Positions 3-60,938 of a stretch of 64,000 bases of DNA are shown here, in pieces. How positions within the stretch are numbered: the first letter of the stretch is position 1; each line of letters starts with the position of its first letter. Under the pieces are notes generated by a model. That model did not search any database, had not been told where the DNA came from, and was given only the letters and a program-made list of their open reading frames with translations. A program made the position numbers and the translations under genes. The stretch spans positions 6,524 to 70,523 of the forward strand of contig JBEBFY010000003.1 of NCBI GenBank assembly GCA_040081715.1, read 5' to 3'. This stretch comes from Vicinamibacterales bacterium (GTDB taxonomy: Bacteria > Acidobacteriota > Vicinamibacteria > Vicinamibacterales > UBA2999).

Positions 3-842
3 CACTCGGGGAGACGGGATCTGGCGGTGGTCCGTTCCCTCTGGCAGACGCTGATTGGGGCGGCCTCGGTGTATCTCGTGTTTCTGCTGTGCTGGGGGCT
101 GAACTACCAGCGGGAACCGCTGTCGGCCCGGCTGGAGCTGGCTGCAGCCGCCCCGGACTCGGCAGCGGTCCTGTCGCTCGGCCGCGACACCGTGAACCAT
201 GCCAATGCGCTTCGTGAGCAGGCGCACCAGGCGGGCTGGCCTGATGCCGCCGTGAACGATGCGCGGCTCCGTGCGTCAGCGGCCCATGTGCAGGCGATGC
301 TTGGCGGGCAGCGGTCTCAGGCAGCGCGCCTTAAGCCCACGCTGCTCCGGTGGCTCTTCCGCTGGGAGGGCGTGGACGCCATGACCAACCCCTTCGGGCT
401 GGATGTGCTCCGCAACCCGGATCTGTTGCCGTTCGAGCGGCCGTTCGTGGCGGCGCACGAGTGGGCGCATCTGGCAGGCTTTGCCAATGAAGCGGAGGCG
501 AACTTCATCGGCTGGCTCACCTGCTTGCACGGCGATGCGCGGTCGCAGTACAGCGGCTGGTTGTTCCTCTACTGGCAGGTGCGCGGTGAATTGCCGGCCG
601 GGGAGCGGGCGGCCCTGGCGCGGGCGCTGGCACCAGGGACGAAAGCGGACCTGGATGCGATTGCGGCCCGCCTCAGCAACGGCCTCGTGCCGGCGCTCCA
701 GCAGGCAGGCTGGGCGGCCTACGACCAGTACCTGAAGGCCAATCGCGTTGAGAGCGGGGTGCGGAGCTACGGCGAAGTGCTGGCGCTCGTACTGCGGACC
801 CGGTTCGACGACCGGTGGCGGCCTCGTCTCAGGGCGCGGTGA
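3..842 (+). CDS. DUF3810-like membrane metalloprotease-type protein (5' end probably outside the window)
   Basis: The frame is open from the window edge. It has a hydrophobic N-terminal segment (LIGAASVYLVFLLCWGLNYQ) and an HExxH-type motif (AHEWAHLAGF). GC3-rich codon usage. Confidence 0.6.
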   Translation, partial: HSGRRDLAVVRSLWQTLIGAASVYLVFLLCWGLNYQREPLSARLELAAAAPDSAAVLSLGRDTVNHANALREQAHQAGWPDAAVNDARLRASAAHVQAMLGGQRSQAARLKPTLLRWLFRWEGVDAMTNPFGLDVLRNPDLLPFERPFVAAHEWAHLAGFANEAEANFIGWLTCLHGDARSQYSGWLFLYWQVRGELPAGERAALARALAPGTKADLDAIAARLSNGLVPALQQAGWAAYDQYLKANRVESGVRSYGEVLALVLRTRFDDRWRPRLRAR

Positions 843-21983: not shown

Positions 21984-22046
21984 GTGGGTGTCCGGGAGGG
22001 TGCGGGGACCCCGAGTGGGTCGCCCTGATTATGGAAACATAATAGA

Positions 22047-22907
22047 TCAGCTCGGGCCCGGCGACTCCTCTTCAGGCGGCAGCGTGGCGAAGAAGCGGTA
22101 CAGGAGCCACGCGTCGAGCGCACCGACGACCACCATCACCAGATAGGCCGCGTTGGTGGCGGTGATCCGCATCTCGCCCAGCAGGCGCGACAGGCCGAAG
22201 GCCACGACCCACGCATCGAAACTCATGCAGACGCGGCGGAAGGTCTCCGGCCGGATGCGCTGAATCAGGAACGAGCCGATGGGCACGCCGATGAGGATGC
22301 TGGGCAGGATGACCGGGATCAGCCGGAAGCTCGCCTCGTTGTGCAGGCCGGCATAGAGATACGCCACCGCCGTCAGGGACGACTCTGCCAGCCGGATCAC
22401 ACCCAGCGCGGCGCGGAAGTTCCGCTTGGTCAGGCCCTGGTTGCTGAGCATCACGGCCAGCGGCGGCCCCGAGATGGTGGTGACGGAATAGAGCACGCCG
22501 AGACCGACGCCGAAGACGCCGCCGACGGCCCGTTCCGATTTGATCGGGCGCCGGAAGCCAGCCGCCTGGACCAGGATGAGCGGGAGCAGCACGATGTAGG
22601 TGATGAGTTTCAGTGGAGACGGGTTGACCTGGGCGACCAGTGCCGTGCCCGCGATAACGCCGGGCACGAGGCCGAGGACGATGGGCAGCACCCGGCGCCA
22701 GACCTGTGGCAGGGCGTCACGATTCACCCACAGGACGTAACTGTTGAGCACGACCTCGATGAGGACGAGGGCGGGATTGAGGACCCGGTTGGCGAGAAAG
22801 AGCAGGGCTAACGGGACGGTGATCGAGGAGAACCCGTACCCGAGCGCACCGTTGACGATCGCGGCCCCGAGGGTGATGGCTGCCAGTGGCAGAAGGTAGT
22901 CGTCCAT
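22047..22907 (-). CDS. TauE/SafE (TSUP, DUF81) family anion permease
   Basis: About 8 predicted TM segments and an N-terminal segment AITLGAAIVNGALGYGFSSITVPLALLFL typical of TSUP. AGGA Shine-Dalgarno upstream of the ATG. Confidence 0.8.
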   Translation of the reverse strand: MDDYLLPLAAITLGAAIVNGALGYGFSSITVPLALLFLANRVLNPALVLIEVVLNSYVLWVNRDALPQVWRRVLPIVLGLVPGVIAGTALVAQVNPSPLKLITYIVLLPLILVQAAGFRRPIKSERAVGGVFGVGLGVLYSVTTISGPPLAVMLSNQGLTKRNFRAALGVIRLAESSLTAVAYLYAGLHNEASFRLIPVILPSILIGVPIGSFLIQRIRPETFRRVCMSFDAWVVAFGLSRLLGEMRITATNAAYLVMVVVGALDAWLLYRFFATLPPEEESPGPS

Positions 22908-22922
22908 GCGTCAGTCCTGTTG

Positions 22923-22960
22923 AAAACACAAAAGCCCGGGCGGTGGTGACCGCTCCGGGC
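22923..22960 (-). terminator. intrinsic terminator in the 5' leader of the TSUP permease gene
   Basis: On the minus strand: GCCCGG(A)GCGGT-CACC-ACCGCCCGGGC (11 bp, one bulge) followed by TTTTGTGTTTT. It ends about 15 nt before the permease ATG. Confidence 0.7.
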
Positions 22961-22991
22961 TCGAATCCTGGTGGTGCGCTGCGCGCTGGAA

Positions 22992-23069
22992 CTAGGCAGG
23001 CACGTGGGGACGGCTCGGAGGCGGACCGAGAAGGGAACAACAACACGCCTGACACGCCGTCGCGAACAT
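22992..23069 (-). CDS. Cys-rich leader peptide (25 aa) of the TSUP permease attenuator
   Basis: Translates as MFATACQACCCSLLGPPPSRPHVPA*. It has four TGT codons, three of them consecutive (23045-23037), and TGT looks rare in this GC-rich genome. It lies between a candidate promoter and the terminator. Confidence 0.6.
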   Translation of the reverse strand: MFATACQACCCSLLGPPPSRPHVPA

Positions 23070-23079
23070 GAGTGGAACG

Positions 23080-23109
23080 GTTGTACCCGACCGGATTCGG
23101 GATTGTCAA
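23080..23109 (-). promoter_or_regulatory. candidate sigma-70 promoter (TTGACA-18 nt-TACAAC) for the minus-strand Cys leader
   Basis: Perfect -35 at 23109-23104 and -10 at 23085-23080 on the minus strand. The leader ATG is only 10 nt past the -10, so the mRNA would be near-leaderless. Confidence 0.4.
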
Positions 23110-23167
23110 CGCGTCGGGCCAGCTGGCTGGCCCGGCCGGCATGGGACCGCGCCGCGTCCCCGGTGTG

Positions 23168-23197
23168 TGGACGCTCCCAATCGGGAAGTGCTAAAGT
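23168..23197 (+). promoter_or_regulatory. candidate promoter (TGGACG-18 nt-TAAAGT) for the plus-strand Cys leader
   Basis: Weaker match. The -10 (23192-23197) lies 12 nt upstream of the leader ATG at 23210. Confidence 0.25.
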
Positions 23198-23209
23198 GCT
23201 GATCAGTCC

Positions 23210-23287
23210 ATGGTTCCGGCTACCTGCCCGTGCGCGTGTTGTTGTTGCATGAGGCCCTCTTCGGGGGCCCGCGGCAGAAGTCTGTAG
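23210..23287 (+). CDS. Cys-rich leader peptide (25 aa) of the cysDN attenuator
   Basis: Translates as MVPATCPCACCCCMRPSSGARGRSL*. Six Cys fall within eight codons (23225-23248), including TGT TGT TGT TGC. A terminator follows 55 nt later. Confidence 0.6.
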   Translation: MVPATCPCACCCCMRPSSGARGRSL

Positions 23288-23341
23288 GTCCGGACGTTCG
23301 GACGGGAAACGCGCACTGAACCACGCGCAACAGATCTGAGG

Positions 23342-23372
23342 CCCGGGACCCATCGGTCCCGGGTTTTTTTTT
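23342..23372 (+). terminator. intrinsic terminator in the cysD 5' leader
   Basis: CCCGGGACC-CATC-GGTCCCGGG (9 bp perfect) followed by nine T residues. It ends 14 nt before the cysD ATG. Confidence 0.8.
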
Positions 23373-23386
23373 GCTGACAGCCGACT

Positions 23387-24337
23387 ATGCCTACTGCACA
23401 ATCCGTCGCCGGTCCGGCCTCAGGCGCCACGCCCCAGCCGCGGCTCGACCATCTGCGCCGCCTTGAGGCGGAGAGCATCCACATCCTCCGAGAGGTGGTG
23501 GCCGAGTTCGAGCGGCCGGTGATGATGTACTCGGTCGGGAAGGACTCGTCGGTGATGCTGCGCCTGGCCCAGAAGGCGTTCCACCCGGCGCCCATTCCGT
23601 TCCCGCTGCTGCACATCGACACGACGTACAAGTTCAAGGAGATGATCGAGTTCCGCGACCGCATGGCCGCCGAGGTCGGGGCGAAGCTCATCGTTCACAT
23701 CAACAAAGAAGCCATCGCCGACGGGACGCAGCCCTTCAAGGTGGGCACGCAGCGCTGCTGCCAGTTGCTCAAGACCACGGGCCTTCTCGACGCCCTGGCT
23801 GAAGGGCAGTTTGACGCGGCGTTCGGCGGTGCCCGCCGCGACGAGGAACGGTCCCGCGCCAAGGAGCGGGTGTTTTCGCTGCGCGACACGCACGGCCAGT
23901 GGGACCCGAAGCGGCAGCGGCCGGAACTTTGGAGCCTGCTGAACAGCCGGCTGAATCCAGGGGAGAGCATCCGCGTGTTTCCGCTGTCCAACTGGACCGA
24001 GATCGACATCTGGCAGTACATCCATGCCGAGAACATCCCCGTGGTGCCGCTCTACTTTGCGAAGGAGCGGGAGGCCCTCGTGCGTGGCGACTCGATTCTC
24101 GTCAGGGAGCAGTCGTTCGTGCCCATGCTGCCCAGCGAGAAGACACAGATGGTCAAGTGCCGGATGCGGTCGCTCGGGTGCTCGCCCTGCACGGGTGCCA
24201 TCCGGTCCGACGCCACGACGGTGCCGATGATCATCGAAGAGCTGGTGGCGGCGCGGAACTCCGAACGGCAGCTCCGGATCATTGACCACGACCAGGACGG
24301 GTCCATGGAAGTGAAGAAGCGCGAGGGCTACTTCTAG
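23387..24337 (+). CDS. cysD: sulfate adenylyltransferase subunit 2 (CysD)
   Basis: [36 protein letters not shown] (PAPS-reductase-like fold) and C-terminal [18 protein letters not shown]. Confidence 0.9.
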
Positions 24338-25641
24338 TGCCGGGACTCCTCCGCATCTGTACCGCTGGCAGCGTCGACGACGGCAAGAGCACGCTCATCG
24401 GGCGGCTGCTGCACGACTCGCGGTCCGTCTACGAGGACCAGATCTCCTCGGTGCAGAAGGCCTCGAAGAACCGGGTGGCCGGTCCGATCGACTTTTCGCT
24501 GTTCACCGACGGCCTGAAGGCGGAGCGGGAGCAGGGCATCACGATCGACGTGGCGTACCGGTACTTCGCCACGGCGCATCGCAAGTTCATTCTGGCCGAC
24601 ACGCCGGGCCACGAGCAGTACACGCGCAACATGGCCACCGGGGCGTCGACCGCGGACCTGGCCATCCTGCTGGTGGACGCCAGGCAGGGCGTCAAGGATC
24701 AGTCGCGCCGGCATGCCCGGATCGCGCGCCTGCTCGGGATCACGCACTTCGTGGTGGCCGTCAACAAGATGGACCTCGTGGGGTTCGACAAGGCCATCTA
24801 CGACGGCATCTGCGCGGAGTTCGCCGAGATCCTCAAGGGGTCCTCGTTTCATGCCATCCCGATGAGTGCTCTCGAGGGCGACAACGTCATCGCGCTCAGC
24901 GAGCGGACGCCCTGGTTTACCGGACCGAGTCTGCTGGAGCACCTGGAGACCGTCGAAGTCGATACGGATGTGACGGCGAAGCCCTTCCGGTTTCCGGTGC
25001 AGATCGTGCTGCGGCCTCACCAGGACTTTCGCGGCTACGCCGGGCAGATTCAGTCCGGCATCGTGCACCGCGGGGATGAGGTGACGGTGTGGCCGTCCGG
25101 CCGGTCCACGGCCGTCAAGCGCATCGTGACCTACGACGGCGACGTGGAGACGGCGTTTGCCCCGATGTCGGTCACGCTCGTCCTCGAGGACGAAATCGAC
25201 ATCAGCCGTGGCGACACGCTCGTGGCCGGTCCCGTGCAGGTGGGGCAGCGCTTCCAGGCCGACATCGTGTGGATGGACGAGCGGCCGCTCGACCCCACCC
25301 GCATGTATGTCCTCAAGCACTCCACCCGCGTGGTGACGGCCGAGATCGACCGCCCGTTCGAGCTGAACGCGATCCATTCCGCGGTGGTCCGCACGTCGCG
25401 GCCCATCATCTTCGACAGCTACACGGACAACCGTGCCACGGGCAGCTTCATCCTGATCGACCCGGCCACCAATTTCACCTGCGGTGCCGGGATGATCGGT
25501 CTGCCGACCGAGGACGACCGCGCCAGTCGCGCGAACGAAGGTGCCGCAGAGCGCCTGGCCAGAATTGCCCGGGCGGCCGCTACCGATGCGGAGGCCGTGG
25601 CCGCGGTGCGGGCGGCACTCGAGGACATCATCAAGTACTGA
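24337..25641 (+). CDS. cysN: sulfate adenylyltransferase subunit 1 (CysN GTPase), no CysC fusion
   Basis: GTPase boxes GSVDDGKSTLIGRLL, DTPGHEQY and NKMDL. The GTG start overlaps the cysD stop (TAGTG). 434 aa, so no APS-kinase domain. Confidence 0.9.
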   Translation: MPGLLRICTAGSVDDGKSTLIGRLLHDSRSVYEDQISSVQKASKNRVAGPIDFSLFTDGLKAEREQGITIDVAYRYFATAHRKFILADTPGHEQYTRNMATGASTADLAILLVDARQGVKDQSRRHARIARLLGITHFVVAVNKMDLVGFDKAIYDGICAEFAEILKGSSFHAIPMSALEGDNVIALSERTPWFTGPSLLEHLETVEVDTDVTAKPFRFPVQIVLRPHQDFRGYAGQIQSGIVHRGDEVTVWPSGRSTAVKRIVTYDGDVETAFAPMSVTLVLEDEIDISRGDTLVAGPVQVGQRFQADIVWMDERPLDPTRMYVLKHSTRVVTAEIDRPFELNAIHSAVVRTSRPIIFDSYTDNRATGSFILIDPATNFTCGAGMIGLPTEDDRASRANEGAAERLARIARAAATDAEAVAAVRAALEDIIKY

Positions 25642-25662: not shown

Positions 25663-28005
25663 ATGGCCTCTATCGCCCTCGACATCACCGGCATGACGTG
25701 CGCGGCCTGCCAGGCCAACGTGCAGCGCGCGCTGGCCCGGCAGCCGGGCGTGACCGATGCGTCGGTCAACCTCATGACCGGCGTGGCCACCGTCGACTGC
25801 GACCCGGCGACCGTGGCTCCCGCCACGCTCATCGAGGCGGTTGAGGCCATCGGCTACGGTGCCGCGGTCCCACCGGCTGAGCAGACCGCGATCGAGGCCG
25901 AGGTGCGGCGCGAGGGGCGGCAGCAGGATGAAGCCAGGGCACTGCTGCGACGGGCGGTGGTCAGCGTGACGCTCGGTGGGTTCGCCATGGTGGTCTCGAT
26001 GCCGCTGATGGTGCCGGCCACTGCACACGAGGGCCACGCCGCGGCGGATCCCTTCATGCGCTGGGCGATGCAGGCGTTGACGCCGGCGCTGCGGGCCATG
26101 CTGCCGGCGCTCTACGACGCGCCCAGGGAAGCGTTGCTCGCGACGCTGCTGCTGACGACACTGGTGGTCGTGCTCTGGGCGGGCCGGGATTTCTACGTGC
26201 ACGGCATGCGCGCGCTGGTGCACCGTGTGCCCGACATGAACTCGCTGGTGGCCGTTGGTACGGGCGCGGCGTTCCTCTATTCGCTCGTGGCCACCATCTG
26301 GCCGCAGATGCTCCTCAGCCGTGGCGTCATGCCTGACGTGTACTACGAGGCCGTCATCATCATCATCGCGCTGGTGCTGACAGGCCGGGCGCTGGAAGCC
26401 CGCGCGCGCGGACGCACTGCCCAGGCACTGCGCGGGCTCGTGGCGATGCAGCCGGCCAGGGCGCGACTGGTACGCGACGGCCGCGAAGAGGATGTCCCGC
26501 TGGAGCGCGTGCGCACGGGGGATGTGATCCGGGTGCGCCCAGGAGAGCGGGTGCCAGTGGACGGCGTCGTAACGGAGGGGTCCGCGGCGATGGACGAGTC
26601 GCTGCTGACCGGGGAGTCGATGCCGGTCACGCGCACGACGGGCGACACGGTGATCGGCGGCACGATCGCGGGTGGCGGGTCGCTCGTGGTCACGGCGACA
26701 GCCGTCGGCGGCAACAGCGTGCTGGCGCAGATCGTCCGGCTGATGCGCGACGCGCAGGGGTCGCGTGCGCCCATCCAGCACCTGGCGGACCGCGTCAGCG
26801 CCATCTTCGTGCCGGCCGTGATGGCCGCTGCGCTCCTGACCTTCATGGCCTGGCTGGCATTCGGGGGCACGGGTGTGCTGATGCAGGCGGCCGCGGCCGC
26901 CGTCTCCGTGCTCATCATCGCGTGCCCGTGCGCCATGGGGCTGGCCGTGCCCACCGCCGTCATGGTGGCCACGGGCCGTGGGGCGGCGCGCGGCATTCTG
27001 ATCAAGGGCGGCCAGGCGCTGCAGCGGGCCGGGGAAGTCACGACGGTCGTGCTTGACAAGACTGGCACGCTGACCGAGGGCCGGCCGGACGTGGTGGAGA
27101 CATGGGTCGGGCCGGGGGTGGATCCGGACGCCGTCCTGGGCGCCATTGCCGCGGTCGAACGGCTCTCGGAGCACCCGCTGGCGGGGGCCATAGTGCGTGG
27201 CGTGGCTGCTTCCCCTGCGACCGTGCCTGTCGAGGCGTTTGTCAGCGAGCCGGGCGGAGGCGTGTCGGCTCGCGTGGGAGGCCGGCGTGTCGTGGTTGGG
27301 AGCGCAGACTACGTGCGGTGGATGGGGATTGAGACGGCGGATGTGGATCTGGAAGCCGCACGACTGAGCCAGGGGGGCCGGACGGTGGTCGTGGGAGCAA
27401 TGGAGGCGAAGCCGGACGGACGGTGGGCCCTGGCGGCCTTCGCAATCGCGGACCGCCTGCGTCCGACATCACGGGAGGCGGTTGCCGCCCTGACGAGGCT
27501 GGGGCTCGAGGTCGTGATGCTGTCGGGTGACACGCAGATGACGGCTGAGGCGGTGGCCCGCGAGGCCGGCATCACCAGGGTCATCGCCGGTGTGCGGCCG
27601 GACGGCAAGGTGGCTGAGGTGCGACGGTTGCAGGAGGCTGGGGCCGTGGTCGCGATGGTGGGTGACGGCGTGAACGACGCGCCGGCCCTGGCCCAGGCCG
27701 ATGTGGGAATCGCCATGGCCAGCGGGTCCGATGTGGCGGTCGATGCGGCCGACATTGCCCTCATTCGGGGAGACCTGACTGGCGTCGTGGCGGCGATGCG
27801 ACTCTCGCGCCAGACCATGCGCACGATGCGCCAGAACCTGTTCTGGGCATTCGCGTACAACGTGGTCGGCATCCCCGTCGCGGCCGGGGTGCTCTATCCT
27901 GCGTTCGGGCTGCTGCTGAGTCCGATTCTTGCCAGCGCCGCCATGGCTGTCAGTTCGGTCAGCGTGGTCACCAACAGTCTCCGGCTTCGCCGGATGACGC
28001 TCTGA
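25663..28005 (+). CDS. copA: P1B-type heavy-metal (Cu+) translocating ATPase
   Basis: N-terminal HMA domain GMTCAACQANVQRAL, CPC motif (IIACPCAMGLAVP), DKTGTLT phosphorylation site, GDGVNDAP hinge, and YN...P and M..SS TM motifs of Cu+ pumps. Confidence 0.9.
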   Translation: MASIALDITGMTCAACQANVQRALARQPGVTDASVNLMTGVATVDCDPATVAPATLIEAVEAIGYGAAVPPAEQTAIEAEVRREGRQQDEARALLRRAVVSVTLGGFAMVVSMPLMVPATAHEGHAAADPFMRWAMQALTPALRAMLPALYDAPREALLATLLLTTLVVVLWAGRDFYVHGMRALVHRVPDMNSLVAVGTGAAFLYSLVATIWPQMLLSRGVMPDVYYEAVIIIIALVLTGRALEARARGRTAQALRGLVAMQPARARLVRDGREEDVPLERVRTGDVIRVRPGERVPVDGVVTEGSAAMDESLLTGESMPVTRTTGDTVIGGTIAGGGSLVVTATAVGGNSVLAQIVRLMRDAQGSRAPIQHLADRVSAIFVPAVMAAALLTFMAWLAFGGTGVLMQAAAAAVSVLIIACPCAMGLAVPTAVMVATGRGAARGILIKGGQALQRAGEVTTVVLDKTGTLTEGRPDVVETWVGPGVDPDAVLGAIAAVERLSEHPLAGAIVRGVAASPATVPVEAFVSEPGGGVSARVGGRRVVVGSADYVRWMGIETADVDLEAARLSQGGRTVVVGAMEAKPDGRWALAAFAIADRLRPTSREAVAALTRLGLEVVMLSGDTQMTAEAVAREAGITRVIAGVRPDGKVAEVRRLQEAGAVVAMVGDGVNDAPALAQADVGIAMASGSDVAVDAADIALIRGDLTGVVAAMRLSRQTMRTMRQNLFWAFAYNVVGIPVAAGVLYPAFGLLLSPILASAAMAVSSVSVVTNSLRLRRMTL

Positions 28006-57639: not shown

Positions 57640-58629
57640 ATGGGGAATCACAAATCGAGTCACCAATCCAGCAACGCGGCGGCGCGCGCGTACTGGCCCG
57701 CGATCCTGGTGGTCGCGCTGGGCGTGACATGGGCCGGCACCGTGATGCTCGCCGCCGCCCCGGCCCGGCCGCGCCAGGTGAGCGCGACGCCTGCAGCGAC
57801 TGCACCCGCGGCCGCGCAGGGGGCCTATGCGGGGCAGGCCGCGTGCCTGGGTTGCCACGCCGAAATGGACTACAAAGGGACGCTGCACGGGCTCGCGTCG
57901 CGTCCGCGCACGCCGGCGGCGACGCACGGCTGCGAAAGCTGCCATGGGCCGGGGCAGGCCCACGCCGAGTCCGGCGAGGCGTCACTGATCCGCAACCCGA
58001 AGAAGCAGACGCCGCAGCAGGCGAGCGAGGCCTGCGTGAGCTGCCACAACCGCGGCACGCACGCGCTGTGGACCGGCAGCCAGCATGACCAGCGCAACGT
58101 CGGCTGCATCACGTGTCACAGCGTGCACACCCCAAAGGGGCCCGCGCAGCTCAAGGCGGCGAGCCAGAAGGAACTGTGCGCGACGTGCCACCGGCCGGTG
58201 ACCAACAAGCAGCACCGGTTCAGCCACATGCCCGTGCGCGAAGGCAAGCTGGAGTGTTCCTCCTGCCACAACACGCACGGCTCCACCAACCAGTCGCTGC
58301 TCAAGACCGGCACCACCGTGGATGAGTCCTGCACCAGCTGCCACGCGGAGAAACGCGGGCCGTACCTCTGGGAGCATGCGCCGGTGGCCAATGCCTGCGT
58401 CACCTGCCATGACCCGCATGGGTCCAACAATGAACGGATGCTGGCGGCGAAGGTGCCCTTCCTGTGCCAGCGGTGCCACGTGACGTCGCGCCATCCGCCA
58501 ACCGTGTACGACGGCTTCGTGCGGAACAACTCGACCAACGCCAACAAGATCATCGGCCGAGGCTGCGTCGTGTGCCACTCGCAGATTCACGGGTCGAATG
58601 CCCCGTCGGGCAAGTCGTTCCTGCGCTAG
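57640..58629 (+). CDS. DmsE/MtrA-family periplasmic decaheme c-type cytochrome
   Basis: Ten CxxCH motifs in 329 aa, at the spacing typical of MtrA/DmsE/PioA/MtoA. The C-terminal CVVCHSQIHGSNAPSGKSFLR matches the family ending. GAGGAG Shine-Dalgarno. Confidence 0.85.
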   Translation: MGNHKSSHQSSNAAARAYWPAILVVALGVTWAGTVMLAAAPARPRQVSATPAATAPAAAQGAYAGQAACLGCHAEMDYKGTLHGLASRPRTPAATHGCESCHGPGQAHAESGEASLIRNPKKQTPQQASEACVSCHNRGTHALWTGSQHDQRNVGCITCHSVHTPKGPAQLKAASQKELCATCHRPVTNKQHRFSHMPVREGKLECSSCHNTHGSTNQSLLKTGTTVDESCTSCHAEKRGPYLWEHAPVANACVTCHDPHGSNNERMLAAKVPFLCQRCHVTSRHPPTVYDGFVRNNSTNANKIIGRGCVVCHSQIHGSNAPSGKSFLR

Positions 58630-58637
58630 GGGAGATC

Positions 58638-60938
58638 ATGCGAACCACAGTTGTGATAGCGGCAGCAGCAGTTACGATCGTCCTGAGCGGGCAGGCACTG
58701 GCGCAGACGCCAGCTGCCAGCGAGGCCAGAAGCCGGGCGGTCACCGGCGTCGTCGACGTCGGTGCCCGCGGGACCTCGGGCTCCGGCGACGAGGCCCGTT
58801 ATGAGCGGTACAGGGATCTGCGCACGGGGGTCTTCTCGCACCTGGTGTTCGGCTCGGCGGACGAGTCGCGGATCTGGTCGGCGGGCGCCGAGAATGTCGG
58901 GTACCGCAACCAGGAATACGTGTTCCGCTACGCCGGCGGTCCGGTCACGCTGAAGGGCGGTTTCGATTCGACGCCTCTCAACTACAGCTACCTGACGTCC
59001 ACGCCGTGGCGCATGGACTCCCCTGGTGTCTTCTCGCTCGACGCGGCCGCCCGCGGGCAGGTGCAGGGCCGGGTGCCGGGTGTCGTGGGCGTGCCGTCGT
59101 CGGTCGCCCAGTTGTCGACGCCTTCGATCTTCCGAGGACTGGCCAATCCCTTTGACCTGCGGTCCCGGCGCGACACGGCGTCGGCGTCCGTGGCGGTGGA
59201 CGCGACCAGGGCGCTCGGCTGGTCGCTGGCGTTCACGTCCACGGGCAAGACCGGCAGCCAGCCCTACGGGGCCTCCTTCGCCTTCAACAACGCCAACGAG
59301 TTGCCCCTGCCGATCGACCATCGCACCAACGATGTGTCGGCGGGCCTGGAGTACACGCGCGAGCAGGGCATGGTGCGTCTGGGCTGGCAGGCCTCGTGGT
59401 TCACCAACGCGATCCAGGAGCTCATCTGGGACAACCCGCTCCGCCAGACGGATACCACGCCCTTCGATGCCAGTGGATACAGCAACGGCAACGGACCGGC
59501 GCGCGGCCGTCTGGCCATGGCGCCCAGCAACCACATGGCGGCCGTCAACGTTACCGGCCTCTACAAGATGCCGGGCCGCACCACGGTCAATGGTGTTTTT
59601 GCCTTCACCACCATGGGGCAGAACGACACGCTCATCCCCTGGACGATCAATAACGCGATTGCCAACCCGTCGGTGTACGGCACCTATCCCGGACTGGCCA
59701 GCCTGCCCCGGCCCACGGCCGAGGCCAAGGTGCACGGCGTCAACGGCATGGTGAACGTGACCTCGCGGCCGAACCGCGTATTCAGCCTGACCACCCGGTA
59801 CCGCTTCAACGACCACCGCAATCTCACGCCGGCTTTCGATGCCCGGCAGTACGTGCGTTTCGACGCTGCGCCGTACTCCGGCGGGTCGTTCAGCCAGAAC
59901 TTCAACATCCGGCAGAACACTTTCGACACGACGGCCGCCTTCAACTTGCGCCCGTCATCAACCCTCCGCGTCGGCTACACCTTCGACGACTTCGACCGCA
60001 CGGGCCGCTCCTTCAGCGACATGCGCGACCATATCGTGCGGGCCTCGTTCGACCAGATGGGCAACCAGTGGGTGACCGTGCGGCTGTCAGCGGACCACAC
60101 GACCCGTGAGGGATTCGGGTTTTCCGAAGCGTCGCTGGAAGACGGCGGACTGCAGCCGGGTGTGCGGTTCTACGATGAGTCCGACCGGAACCGGAATCGC
60201 GGCACGGCCCTCGTGGTGCTGACGCCTGCCTCGTTTATGGACGTGACCTTCACCGCGACGGCCGGCAAGGACATCTACAAGGGCGAGGGGCACGAGTTCG
60301 GGCTGCTGAACAACACGAACCGGTCACTGAACGTCGGCCTGAACGTGAGCCCGGGTGAGCACGCATCCTTCGGGTTCAGCATCGGCCGCGAGATGTTCAA
60401 CTCCCTGCAGCGGTCGCGGAACGCGAACCCGCCCGGAACCGACTACGGCAGCTGGACGGATCCGAACCGGACCTGGGACCTGACGAACGACGAACAGGTC
60501 AACATCGTGGATGTGTATGTGGATCTGGCCAAGCTGTTCCGCGCGTTCGACCTGCGGGCGGACTACCTCTACAGCGACTCCGACAACGGATTCGTCCACA
60601 GTGGTCCACGCGTGGTGGCACTTTCCACCAACGCCGCACTGACACCCGGCGACAGCCGGCCCTGCACGGCGGGGCTCACGTCCTGCTTCGAGGCGTTGCC
60701 GAACGTGACCAATGCCTGGCACCGGGTCACCCTCGACGGGACGCGGTACTTCACCGAGAAGGTCGGCATCGGCGTCAGCTACTGGTACGAGCGGTTCGAC
60801 GTGACCGACTTCGCGCGGGTGGATCTGGCCGGGACGGCACTCCCGCGTATCGACTATCTGGGCGAGATCAACACGGGCTATGGCAACCGGCCGTACCGGG
60901 GCAGTTCGATCTTCACCCGTCTGCTGTATCGTTTCTAA
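58638..60938 (+). CDS. MtrB/PioB-family decaheme-associated outer-membrane beta-barrel protein
   Basis: It follows the decaheme gene after an 8-nt gap. It has a signal peptide (AAAVTIVLSGQALA), N-terminal YERYRDLRTGVF and VGYRNQEY motifs seen in MtrB/PioB, alternating beta-strand patterning over about 740 aa, and a terminal LLYRF. Confidence 0.8.
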   Translation: MRTTVVIAAAAVTIVLSGQALAQTPAASEARSRAVTGVVDVGARGTSGSGDEARYERYRDLRTGVFSHLVFGSADESRIWSAGAENVGYRNQEYVFRYAGGPVTLKGGFDSTPLNYSYLTSTPWRMDSPGVFSLDAAARGQVQGRVPGVVGVPSSVAQLSTPSIFRGLANPFDLRSRRDTASASVAVDATRALGWSLAFTSTGKTGSQPYGASFAFNNANELPLPIDHRTNDVSAGLEYTREQGMVRLGWQASWFTNAIQELIWDNPLRQTDTTPFDASGYSNGNGPARGRLAMAPSNHMAAVNVTGLYKMPGRTTVNGVFAFTTMGQNDTLIPWTINNAIANPSVYGTYPGLASLPRPTAEAKVHGVNGMVNVTSRPNRVFSLTTRYRFNDHRNLTPAFDARQYVRFDAAPYSGGSFSQNFNIRQNTFDTTAAFNLRPSSTLRVGYTFDDFDRTGRSFSDMRDHIVRASFDQMGNQWVTVRLSADHTTREGFGFSEASLEDGGLQPGVRFYDESDRNRNRGTALVVLTPASFMDVTFTATAGKDIYKGEGHEFGLLNNTNRSLNVGLNVSPGEHASFGFSIGREMFNSLQRSRNANPPGTDYGSWTDPNRTWDLTNDEQVNIVDVYVDLAKLFRAFDLRADYLYSDSDNGFVHSGPRVVALSTNAALTPGDSRPCTAGLTSCFEALPNVTNAWHRVTLDGTRYFTEKVGIGVSYWYERFDVTDFARVDLAGTALPRIDYLGEINTGYGNRPYRGSSIFTRLLYRF

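Follow-up and report, generated by a model that had tools for sequence, protein, structure and literature searches.

In the classical attenuators of Escherichia coli and Salmonella (trpL, hisL, leuL, thrL, ilvL and pheL), a short leader open reading frame (ORF) contains clustered codons for the end-product amino acid, a hairpin (1:2) follows right after these regulatory codons, and a 2:3 antiterminator and a 3:4 intrinsic terminator with its U run form in mutually exclusive fashion ahead of biosynthetic genes for the amino acid being sensed. The same arrangement appears twice in a 64,000-nucleotide stretch of contig JBEBFY010000003.1 from a Vicinamibacterales bacterium (this whole stretch is referred to below as the window), where a TauE/TSUP permease gene and the divergently oriented cysD are separated by 479 nt containing two outward-pointing ORFs of 25 codons, each with a run of cysteine codons and each followed by an intrinsic terminator. 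On comparative grounds it is likely that both elements are ribosome-mediated transcription attenuators of the trp/his type, reading the supply of Cys-tRNA(Cys). They depart from the classical systems in sensing cysteine, in their targets (cysDN and a permease) and acidobacterial host, in having neither sequence homology to those systems nor an Rfam match, in a leader ORF that lacks a Shine-Dalgarno (SD) sequence, begins 9–12 nt past a -10 box and is probably leaderless or nearly so, and in a long, interrupted antiterminator whose base strand would lie under the terminating ribosome.

Cysteine-codon leaders have been described or predicted in several other groups. In mycobacteria, polycysteine leaderless short ORFs (sORFs) exert translational attenuation, in which a ribosome-binding site becomes unmasked, and make up a 'Cys ribulon' (Canestrari et al. 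2020, doi 10.1101/834739). The likeness to the elements proposed here lies in unannotated ORFs with runs of Cys codons and no SD sequence, for which a place at the very 5' end of the transcript is predicted here, in the several cysteine-related loci per organism, and in Cys stalling that would remodel downstream pairing. The mycobacterial sORFs are, however, translational and without a terminator, they belong to another phylum and are unrelated in sequence, and where they have an SD-sequestering duplex the elements described here have strong intrinsic terminators, a GC-rich hairpin and U run with no SD sequence. Candidate Cys-run leader peptides upstream of cys operons were identified in Actinobacteria by comparative genomics (Seliverstov et al. 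2005, PMC1262725); in these, conserved terminator hairpins are missing and the authors suggested termination by Rho, in contrast to the conserved intrinsic terminators and antiterminators found here. A further case is uORFC-8-2, upstream of cysS in Rhodobacterales, a predicted ribosome-mediated attenuator proposed to sense Cys-tRNA(Cys) (Brewer et al. 2021, PMC8632094), which shares the tandem Cys codons in an upstream ORF, the two stems and the terminal U run and is, as here, predicted only. It nevertheless controls cysS in alpha-proteobacteria rather than cysDN/TSUP in an acidobacterium, and its two Cys codons reside inside stem 1, whereas here the Cys run precedes the 1:2 hairpin (P1); the sequences are unrelated. 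In the full-text literature, of which coverage was incomplete, no report was found on Acidobacteria, nor on Cys attenuation through a terminator for either cysDN or a TSUP gene, and the leader family described below as class 1 is apparently undescribed, representing a known principle in a new phylum and with new target genes. Cys-codon attenuators being already known, the mechanism itself is unsurprising to specialists. Few bacteria in soil are as abundant as the Acidobacteriota, yet to our knowledge almost nothing is known about their gene regulation; the family provides a testable rule for sulfur assimilation in Vicinamibacterales, and would carry Cys-tRNA sensing outside Actinobacteria and into the attenuation of cysDN by a classical intrinsic terminator.

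A cysteine-codon leader family upstream of cysD

Translation of the gap confirms the two outward-facing ORFs that a preliminary description of this DNA had reported (Table 1). Cys codons occupy positions 23225–23227, 23231–23233 and 23237–23248 (TGT TGT TGT TGC) in the cysD leader, and positions 23054–23052 and 23045–23037 (TGT x3) in the TSUP leader, and the two runs form an inverted repeat of 13 nt, already remarked upon and found to be exact, with arms at 23036–23048 and 23234–23246. The codon usage is as unusual as had been claimed, since seven of the ten leader Cys codons are TGT (three TGT and three TGC on the plus strand, four TGT on the minus strand) against one TGT and 23 TGC in six neighbouring genes (TGT ~4%). 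Both of the reported hairpin and T-run terminators were recovered as well, with stems at 23338–23367 and 22961–22933. The plus-strand terminator ends 14 nt before the cysD ATG, and the tract TTTTGTGTTTT of its minus-strand counterpart reaches 22923, 15 nt before the TSUP ATG; a simple terminator scan missed the latter because its stem has one bulge, and RNAfold recovers it.

By its CysD relatives the window belongs to Acidobacteriota, near Vicinamibacterales. Conservation was assessed in 80 related cysD loci, most of which, besides the close relatives L001 and L002 (CysD 90% identical to that of the window), are labelled Vicinamibacterales. About 58 of these 80 Acidobacteriota loci have, in the 700 nt preceding cysD, a sense-strand sORF with at least three Cys in seven codons, and in 44 of them it is accompanied by a conserved terminator (AGCCCGGG..CCCGGGCTTTT / AGCCCGGG-loop-CCCGGGCTTTTTT) located 50–80 nt past the stop codon. 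These 44, plus the window, constitute class 1, whose peptides take the form ...C.CACCC(C).RT..VPA.SV.LFG. A profile of 41 class-1 leaders, from which the window, L001 and L002 had been left out, matches window positions 23229–23371 with E=5.7e-15, and this match identifies the plus-strand leader as a class-1 member. A pattern composed of RNA features only and disregarding the reading frame (TGTTGT-N4-GGACC-N4-8-GGTCCC-N55-85-GCCCGGG) retrieved at least 120 further copies from soil and other metagenomes, representing at least 102 distinct elements, and the gene 3' of the copy is cysD in about 105 of the at least 120 matches listed. The leader-peptide attenuator reading put forward in the preliminary description is supported by this comparison, in which all of its parts are present and conserved together in relatives.

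The same data settle the question of chance. Spurious ORFs are common in high-GC DNA, the window containing 778 ORFs of 6–80 codons, of which 15 beyond the leaders have at least three Cys in seven codons, and GC-rich intergenic DNA could in principle present two short ORFs and two hairpins with no function at all. Conservation in 44 genomes and in at least 102 distinct metagenome elements, with covariation, together with the profile match and with a terminator motif (GCCCGGG..CCCGGGYTTTT) that occurs once in the window against 0 expected occurrences (100 shuffles), has already refuted this explanation. Only the two leader ORFs, in the entire 64 kb, are intergenic and have at least four Cys in seven codons. 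A third ORF with that many Cys, at 55–102 (+), falls inside a 271-aa ORF (27–842 +), and a further Cys-rich sORF, at 60250–60366 (-), inside an 824-aa ORF (58464–60938 +); located in another frame or on the opposite strand of these long ORFs, both are chance products of GC-rich coding DNA and were discarded.

Whether the Cys codons are read can be judged from the reading frame. Among the 102 distinct elements, selected by motif, a start codon upstream and a stop codon between region 2 (the 3' arm of P1) and the terminator are found for the Cys frame (TGT TGT) in 100, and for the other two frames in 26 and 34, respectively. This count bears upon the alternative view that the conserved RNA is a riboswitch or protein-binding leader responding to a sulfur metabolite or regulatory protein, with terminator and antiterminator acting as its expression platform and the Cys ORF being incidental. 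Such a view would accommodate the strong sequence conservation of an RNA with alternative helices, a conserved peptide tail (RT..VPA.SV) that is fully explicable by those helices, and equilibrium folds that by themselves need no ribosome. It does not accommodate a Cys frame kept open, with a well-placed stop, in nearly every element, a fixed spacing between Cys run and P1, or a minus-strand leader whose Cys run and stop position survive a frameshift (see below); moreover, no conserved multi-helix junction resembling a ligand pocket is seen, the region from stop codon to terminator is poorly conserved, and an Rfam scan of positions 22000–24500 on both strands matched no family (best ncS037, 27 bits vs a gathering score of 112, E=0.09). 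A riboswitch or protein-binding leader is therefore decidedly unlikely.

Class-1 leaders at large also favour TGT, with 224 TGT and 133 TGC codons (TGT ~63–69%, including the window). TGT and TGC are decoded by the same tRNA(Cys), and slower wobble decoding, avoidance of structure and pairing constraints are candidate causes of the preference.

The start of these leaders has a characteristic context, with a -35 element TTGAC(T), a -10 element TA(G/C)AAT and a start codon that is usually GTG. Of 36 curated class-1 leaders, 23 have a -10-like hexamer ending 8–12 nt ahead of the start codon and one has an SD-like tetramer, and for these two reasons class-1 leaders are probably leaderless or near-leaderless, their start sites being predicted from these contexts. 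In the cysD leader of the window the -10 element ends 12 nt before the ATG, with no SD sequence, and the arrangement TGGACG-N18-TAAAGT-N12-ATG is invariant across the window, L001 and L002; for this putative promoter the 12-nt gap would give a 5' untranslated region of ~4–5 nt.

The class-1 leader and terminator were also seen ahead of a siroheme-synthase-like (CysG-like) gene in three metagenome contigs, L081 (minus strand, ~1220–1312), L189 and L198, the gene being recognized by eye from its N-terminus, MFPAFL.L..R.VVV.GGG.VAA.K. Sequence comparison suggests a small class-1 regulon beyond cysDN, and the class-1 element may serve as an annotation marker for cysteine-responsive genes, including the TSUP permease and the siroheme-synthase-like gene.

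Alternative structures and the proposed switch

In an alignment of the 44 class-1 sequences (A2), RNAalifold predicts two elements, P1 (GGACC-loop-GGTCC) right after the Cys run, and the terminator. For the terminator state, pairing extends to 96% of cells and both members have changed in six pairs, a result reached in 0 of 500 shuffles; P1 of the window is a compensated variant, GGCCC:GGGCC, of the homologous GGACC/GGTCC hairpin. Terminator hairpins are GC-rich, 10–13 bp long and followed by 6–10 T in nearly all class-1 copies. The competing structure is the antiterminator, a long interrupted helix formed between a 5' strand comprising the P1 3' arm and sequence downstream of it (GGTCCCCGCGC..CGGTC) and a 3' strand, GATCG-AA-GCCCGGGGACC, that takes in the nucleotides immediately preceding the terminator and most of the terminator's own 5' arm. 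In the window this corresponds to pairing of 23265–23285 with 23330–23351, the latter taking in 10 of the 13 nt of the terminator 5' arm. The preliminary description had listed two partners for GGGCC at 23265–23269 on the plus strand and had left their logic unsettled; both pairings are real, within longer helices, and the segment alternates between P1 (23253–23257) and the terminator 5' arm (23340–23344). The 1:2 / 2:3 / 3:4 layout it had read on the minus strand holds in the same sense, with CTCGG/CCGAG being real and within longer helices.

Several measures point to the antiterminator as a genuine helix. In a partner-swap test its native strands pair at a mean of -24.3 kcal/mol, compared with -21.3 kcal/mol for strands exchanged between genomes (z=-7.2, 0 of 5000 permutations), the terminator arms (z=-7.8) and P1 (z=-4.7) showing the same behaviour. 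Pair counts give 90% paired for the base helix and 71% for the upper helix, the latter being a fixed-column count that is lowered by register shifts, since the number of C in region 2 (CCCCG/CCCGG) tracks, by eye, the number of G in the terminator arm (GGGG/GGG). By these sequence comparisons P1, terminator and antiterminator of class 1 all co-vary. Two further pairings seen by eye, GCGUGUU (Cys codons) with downstream AACACGC and a lower stem UGCGCG:CGCGC, were weak (z=-2.2 and z=-2.7, respectively) and were set aside.

The 5' arm of P1 begins 4 nt past the last Cys codon in all 44 class-1 leaders, just downstream of 3–6 Cys codons, and this spacing implies that a ribosome with the last Cys codon in its A site would cover the arm. 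The stop codon lies at a median of 13 nt past the antiterminator base strand, and in 36 of 44 leaders the distance is between -3 and +15 nt; a terminating ribosome would thus cover that strand. Leader length and N-termini, on the other hand, vary freely.

From these elements the following course of events is proposed. The transcript would begin a few nt before the short ORF, which has no SD sequence, and translation would set in nearly at the moment the 5' end is exposed. With cysteine in good supply, the ribosome would pass the Cys codons and reach the stop codon, P1 would re-form behind it, and, with the terminating ribosome sitting on the antiterminator base strand, the terminator would fold and transcription would stop 14–15 nt short of the cysD or TSUP start codon. 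Under scarcity of charged tRNA(Cys), the ribosome would stall on the Cys run, consisting mostly of the otherwise rare TGT, and its footprint would hide the P1 5' arm located 4–6 nt past the last Cys codon. Region 2 and the base strand, thus freed, would pair with the 5' arm of the terminator together with the nucleotides immediately 5' of it, and the long antiterminator would prevent terminator formation, allowing RNA polymerase to continue into cysDN on one strand and into the TSUP permease gene on the other. The targets (cysDN, the TSUP genes and the siroheme-synthase-like gene seen by eye in three metagenome contigs) fit cysteine synthesis. Import of sulfate by the TSUP permease may be part of this picture, an idea that stems from CysZ, the DUF81/TauE-family protein of Corynebacterium glutamicum.

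Some observations weigh against this attenuation mechanism or limit its reach. Folding with and without the leader ORF masked had been suggested in the preliminary description as a test for mutually exclusive structures. When the RNA is truncated ahead of the terminator 3' arm, pairing between region 2 and the terminator 5' arm is seen in 33 of 44 leaders; at equilibrium the full-length leaders keep the terminator in 34 to 39 of 44 even with the mask on the Cys codons, and in cut RNA the mean antiterminator pairing is 0.81 in the free and 0.88 in the stalled state, so that the ribosome is not needed. With full-length RNA favouring the terminator in these models, and cut RNA the antiterminator without a ribosome, the switch must be kinetic, which equilibrium folding tools cannot show; the trp leader switch is likewise kinetic. 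The geometry fits masking of region 1 only for a stall at the last Cys codons, and a ribosome stalled at the first codon of the run would leave P1 uncovered. The partner-swap test takes genomes as independent, with shared ancestry uncorrected. No obvious SD sequence is found for cysD or the leader ORFs, and translation initiation in Acidobacteriota is poorly known. The TSUP leader is known from three near-identical copies, and these differ so little that its helices have no covariation support. Finally, the response to cysteine is a prediction from comparative data.

The location of the terminators, ending merely 14–15 nt before the start codons, raises the further possibility that control is mainly translational or acts via mRNA stability, the hairpin modulating ribosome access or stability in the manner of the SD-sequestering mycobacterial polycysteine sORFs. 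The Cys sORFs that have been studied experimentally do act on translation, and related class-2 leaders within the clade (see below) are devoid of terminators. Against this, GC-rich hairpins followed by T runs, as in nearly all class-1 copies, are what marks intrinsic termination; the T run has been conserved though it pairs with nothing, and the hairpins contain no SD sequence. Mainly translational control is accordingly considered unlikely, and transcription attenuation is retained as the preferred explanation.

Table 1. Coordinates of the leader elements and flanking genes in the window, with the basis for each.
Feature	Position	Strand	Description	Basis
cysD leader ORF	23210..23287	+	25 codons, 6 Cys; peptide MVPATCPCACCCCMRPSSGARGRSL	ORF translation
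Putative cysD leader promoter	23168..23197	+	-35 TGGACG 23168–23173; extended -10 TGcTAAAGT (hexamer 23192–23197)	sequence conservation; predicted
cysD leader P1 (regions 1:2)	23253..23269	+	GGCCCUC:GGGGGCC	minimum free energy fold; homologous hairpin from RNAalifold
cysD leader antiterminator, 5' strand	23265..23285	+	region 2 (GGGCCCGCGGC) and base strand AGUCUGU, overlapping the stop codon	constrained folds, duplex prediction, partner-swap, pair counts
cysD leader antiterminator, 3' strand	23330..23351	+	ACAGAUCU ... GCCCGGGACCC	constrained folds, partner-swap, pair counts
cysD leader intrinsic terminator	23338..23372	+	13-bp stem 23338–23367, 4-nt loop, T9 run 23364–23372	terminator scan, RNAalifold, motif count
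TSUP leader ORF	22992..23069	-	25 codons, 4 Cys; peptide MFATACQACCCSLLGPPPSRPHVPA	ORF translation
Putative TSUP leader promoter	23080..23109	-	-35 TTGACA 23109–23104, 18-nt spacer, -10 TACAAC 23085–23080	read from sequence
TSUP leader P1	23014..23030	-	CUCGG:CCGAG	folding
TSUP leader antiterminator, 5' strand	23008..23027	-	GGUCCGCCUCCGAGCCGUCC	constrained folds
TSUP leader antiterminator, 3' strand	22945..22968	-	GGAUUCGAGCCCGGAGCGGUCACC, overlapping the terminator 5' arm	constrained folds
TSUP leader intrinsic terminator	22923..22961	-	stem AGCCCGGAGCGG / CCGCCCGGGCU, one bulge, then UUUUGUGUUUU	RNAfold
TauE/SafE (TSUP) permease	22047..22907	-	286 aa	Pfam PF01925, E=2.9e-25
cysD	23387–24337	+		Pfam PAPS_reduct/GTP_EFTU matches for cysDN
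cysN	24337–25641	+		Pfam PAPS_reduct/GTP_EFTU matches for cysDN

The TSUP leader and a frameshift within it

The minus-strand leader has only two known relatives, those of L001 and L002, where it occupies the same divergent position and the TSUP genes are 82–83% identical. L002 (CAYNUO010000081.1) bears the label 'uncultured Bifidobacteriaceae', probably a binning or labelling error; its cysD/TSUP locus and both leaders are nearly identical to those of the window. The three leaders (window, L001 and L002; alignment A3) have conserved DNA all the way from Cys run to terminator. P1 begins 6 nt past the last Cys codon and is invariant in the three known copies, and constrained folds yield identical antiterminator pairing in all three. 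The -10 element ends 10 nt before the ATG, and this putative promoter is weak in that it is not conserved in L001 and L002. The antiterminator 3' strand resembles the class-1 GAUCGAAAGCCCGG region, marginally (nhmmer E=0.06, 3' part); with a match of this kind, confined to the 3' part, the leader was not accepted as a class-1 homologue and is treated as a separate variant.

Within this stretch there is a 1-nt indel directly 3' of TGTTGTTGT (window 23037–23048 region), which shifts the reading frame of the window leader relative to L001 and L002. The leader tails differ accordingly, ending CCCSLLGPPPSRPHVPA before the stop in the window and CCCPISVRLRAVSVCPCN before the stop in L001, while both frames keep the Cys run and terminate within a few nt of the same place. 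An indel that alters the tail while Cys run and stop are kept is good evidence, at the level of sequence, that what is selected is the Cys codons, the RNA and how far translation extends, and not the peptide.

This finding also bears on the notion that the sORFs encode functional Cys-rich micropeptides (metal-binding, redox or ribosomally synthesized and post-translationally modified peptide-like) co-transcribed with the sulfur genes. Class-1 peptides do look conserved (C.CACCC.RT..VPA.SV.LFG), and a heavy-metal P-type ATPase gene is found just 3' of cysN. In the minus-strand leader, however, the tail is wholly different in close relatives as a result of the frameshift, with the DNA conserved; in class 1 the conserved codons coincide with RNA helices; leader length and N-termini are free to vary; and a terminator placed between sORF and operon is unexpected for a simple co-expressed peptide. 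We view a micropeptide function as very unlikely.

Class-2 leaders and neighbouring features

Cys-rich leaders in this group are not limited to class 1. A TSUP gene is linked to cysD, divergently or co-directionally, in 25 of the 80 related loci, and at least 14 of these 25 TSUP genes are preceded by a Cys-rich sORF. A second group, class 2, comprises 25 sORFs (in loci L003, L005, L007, L034, L035, L039, L042, L047–L053, L055, L059, L061, L063, L066, L069, L070 and L080) whose peptides end ...CRCxCxxPxTxR at the stop codon, and which are located before TSUP genes or cysD, some of them just after cysA. By eye these leaders share a hairpin, CCGGCGAC..GCCGG, at the stop codon, a downstream complement, TCGCTCGGC, and a CTCTCC stretch. 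They are without the class-1 terminator, and RNAalifold found no convincing consensus for the class-2 leaders. Judging from sequence they may act on translation, and may fit the SD-sequestering mechanism of the mycobacterial sORFs.

In L003, L007, L039 and L063 a class-1 cysD leader stands opposite a class-2 TSUP leader, and twin divergent Cys leaders consequently recur with different parts. A broader proposal, which we hold tentatively and at somewhat less than an even chance, is that Vicinamibacteria, and possibly other Acidobacteriota and Gemmatimonadota, possess a ribosome-sensed 'Cys ribulon' for sulfate assimilation, in which at least two unrelated leader designs, the terminator-type class 1 and the probably translational class 2, both working from leaderless or near-leaderless sORFs, have been swapped between cysDN and TSUP genes in different genera. 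If this is true, control by Cys-tRNA charging would have been invented repeatedly and would be widespread outside Actinobacteria as an alternative to transcription factors of the CysB type. In a Gemmatimonadaceae metagenome-assembled genome (L074), a Cys-run sORF (...MCCCPVCPSGSSGRT) precedes a TSUP-cysD operon, ~115 nt ahead of its TSUP gene (at 2036), and sequence thus hints that Cys leaders on the TSUP/cysD pair extend beyond Acidobacteriota.

Two features adjoining the leaders complete the description of the locus. Between the two divergent leader promoters lies a palindrome, GGCCAGC-TG-GCTGGCC, at 23117–23132, which was considered as a transcription-factor site; it is absent from L001 and L002 (spacer ~100 to ~170 nt), and for this reason is probably no conserved regulator site. 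On the other side, cysD and cysN (23387..25641, +) encode sulfate adenylyltransferase, and 21 nt past cysN a gene for a heavy-metal P-type ATPase (HMA, E1-E2 ATPase; window 25663–28005, +) begins on the same strand, which might be co-transcribed with cysDN and hence come under the Cys attenuator.

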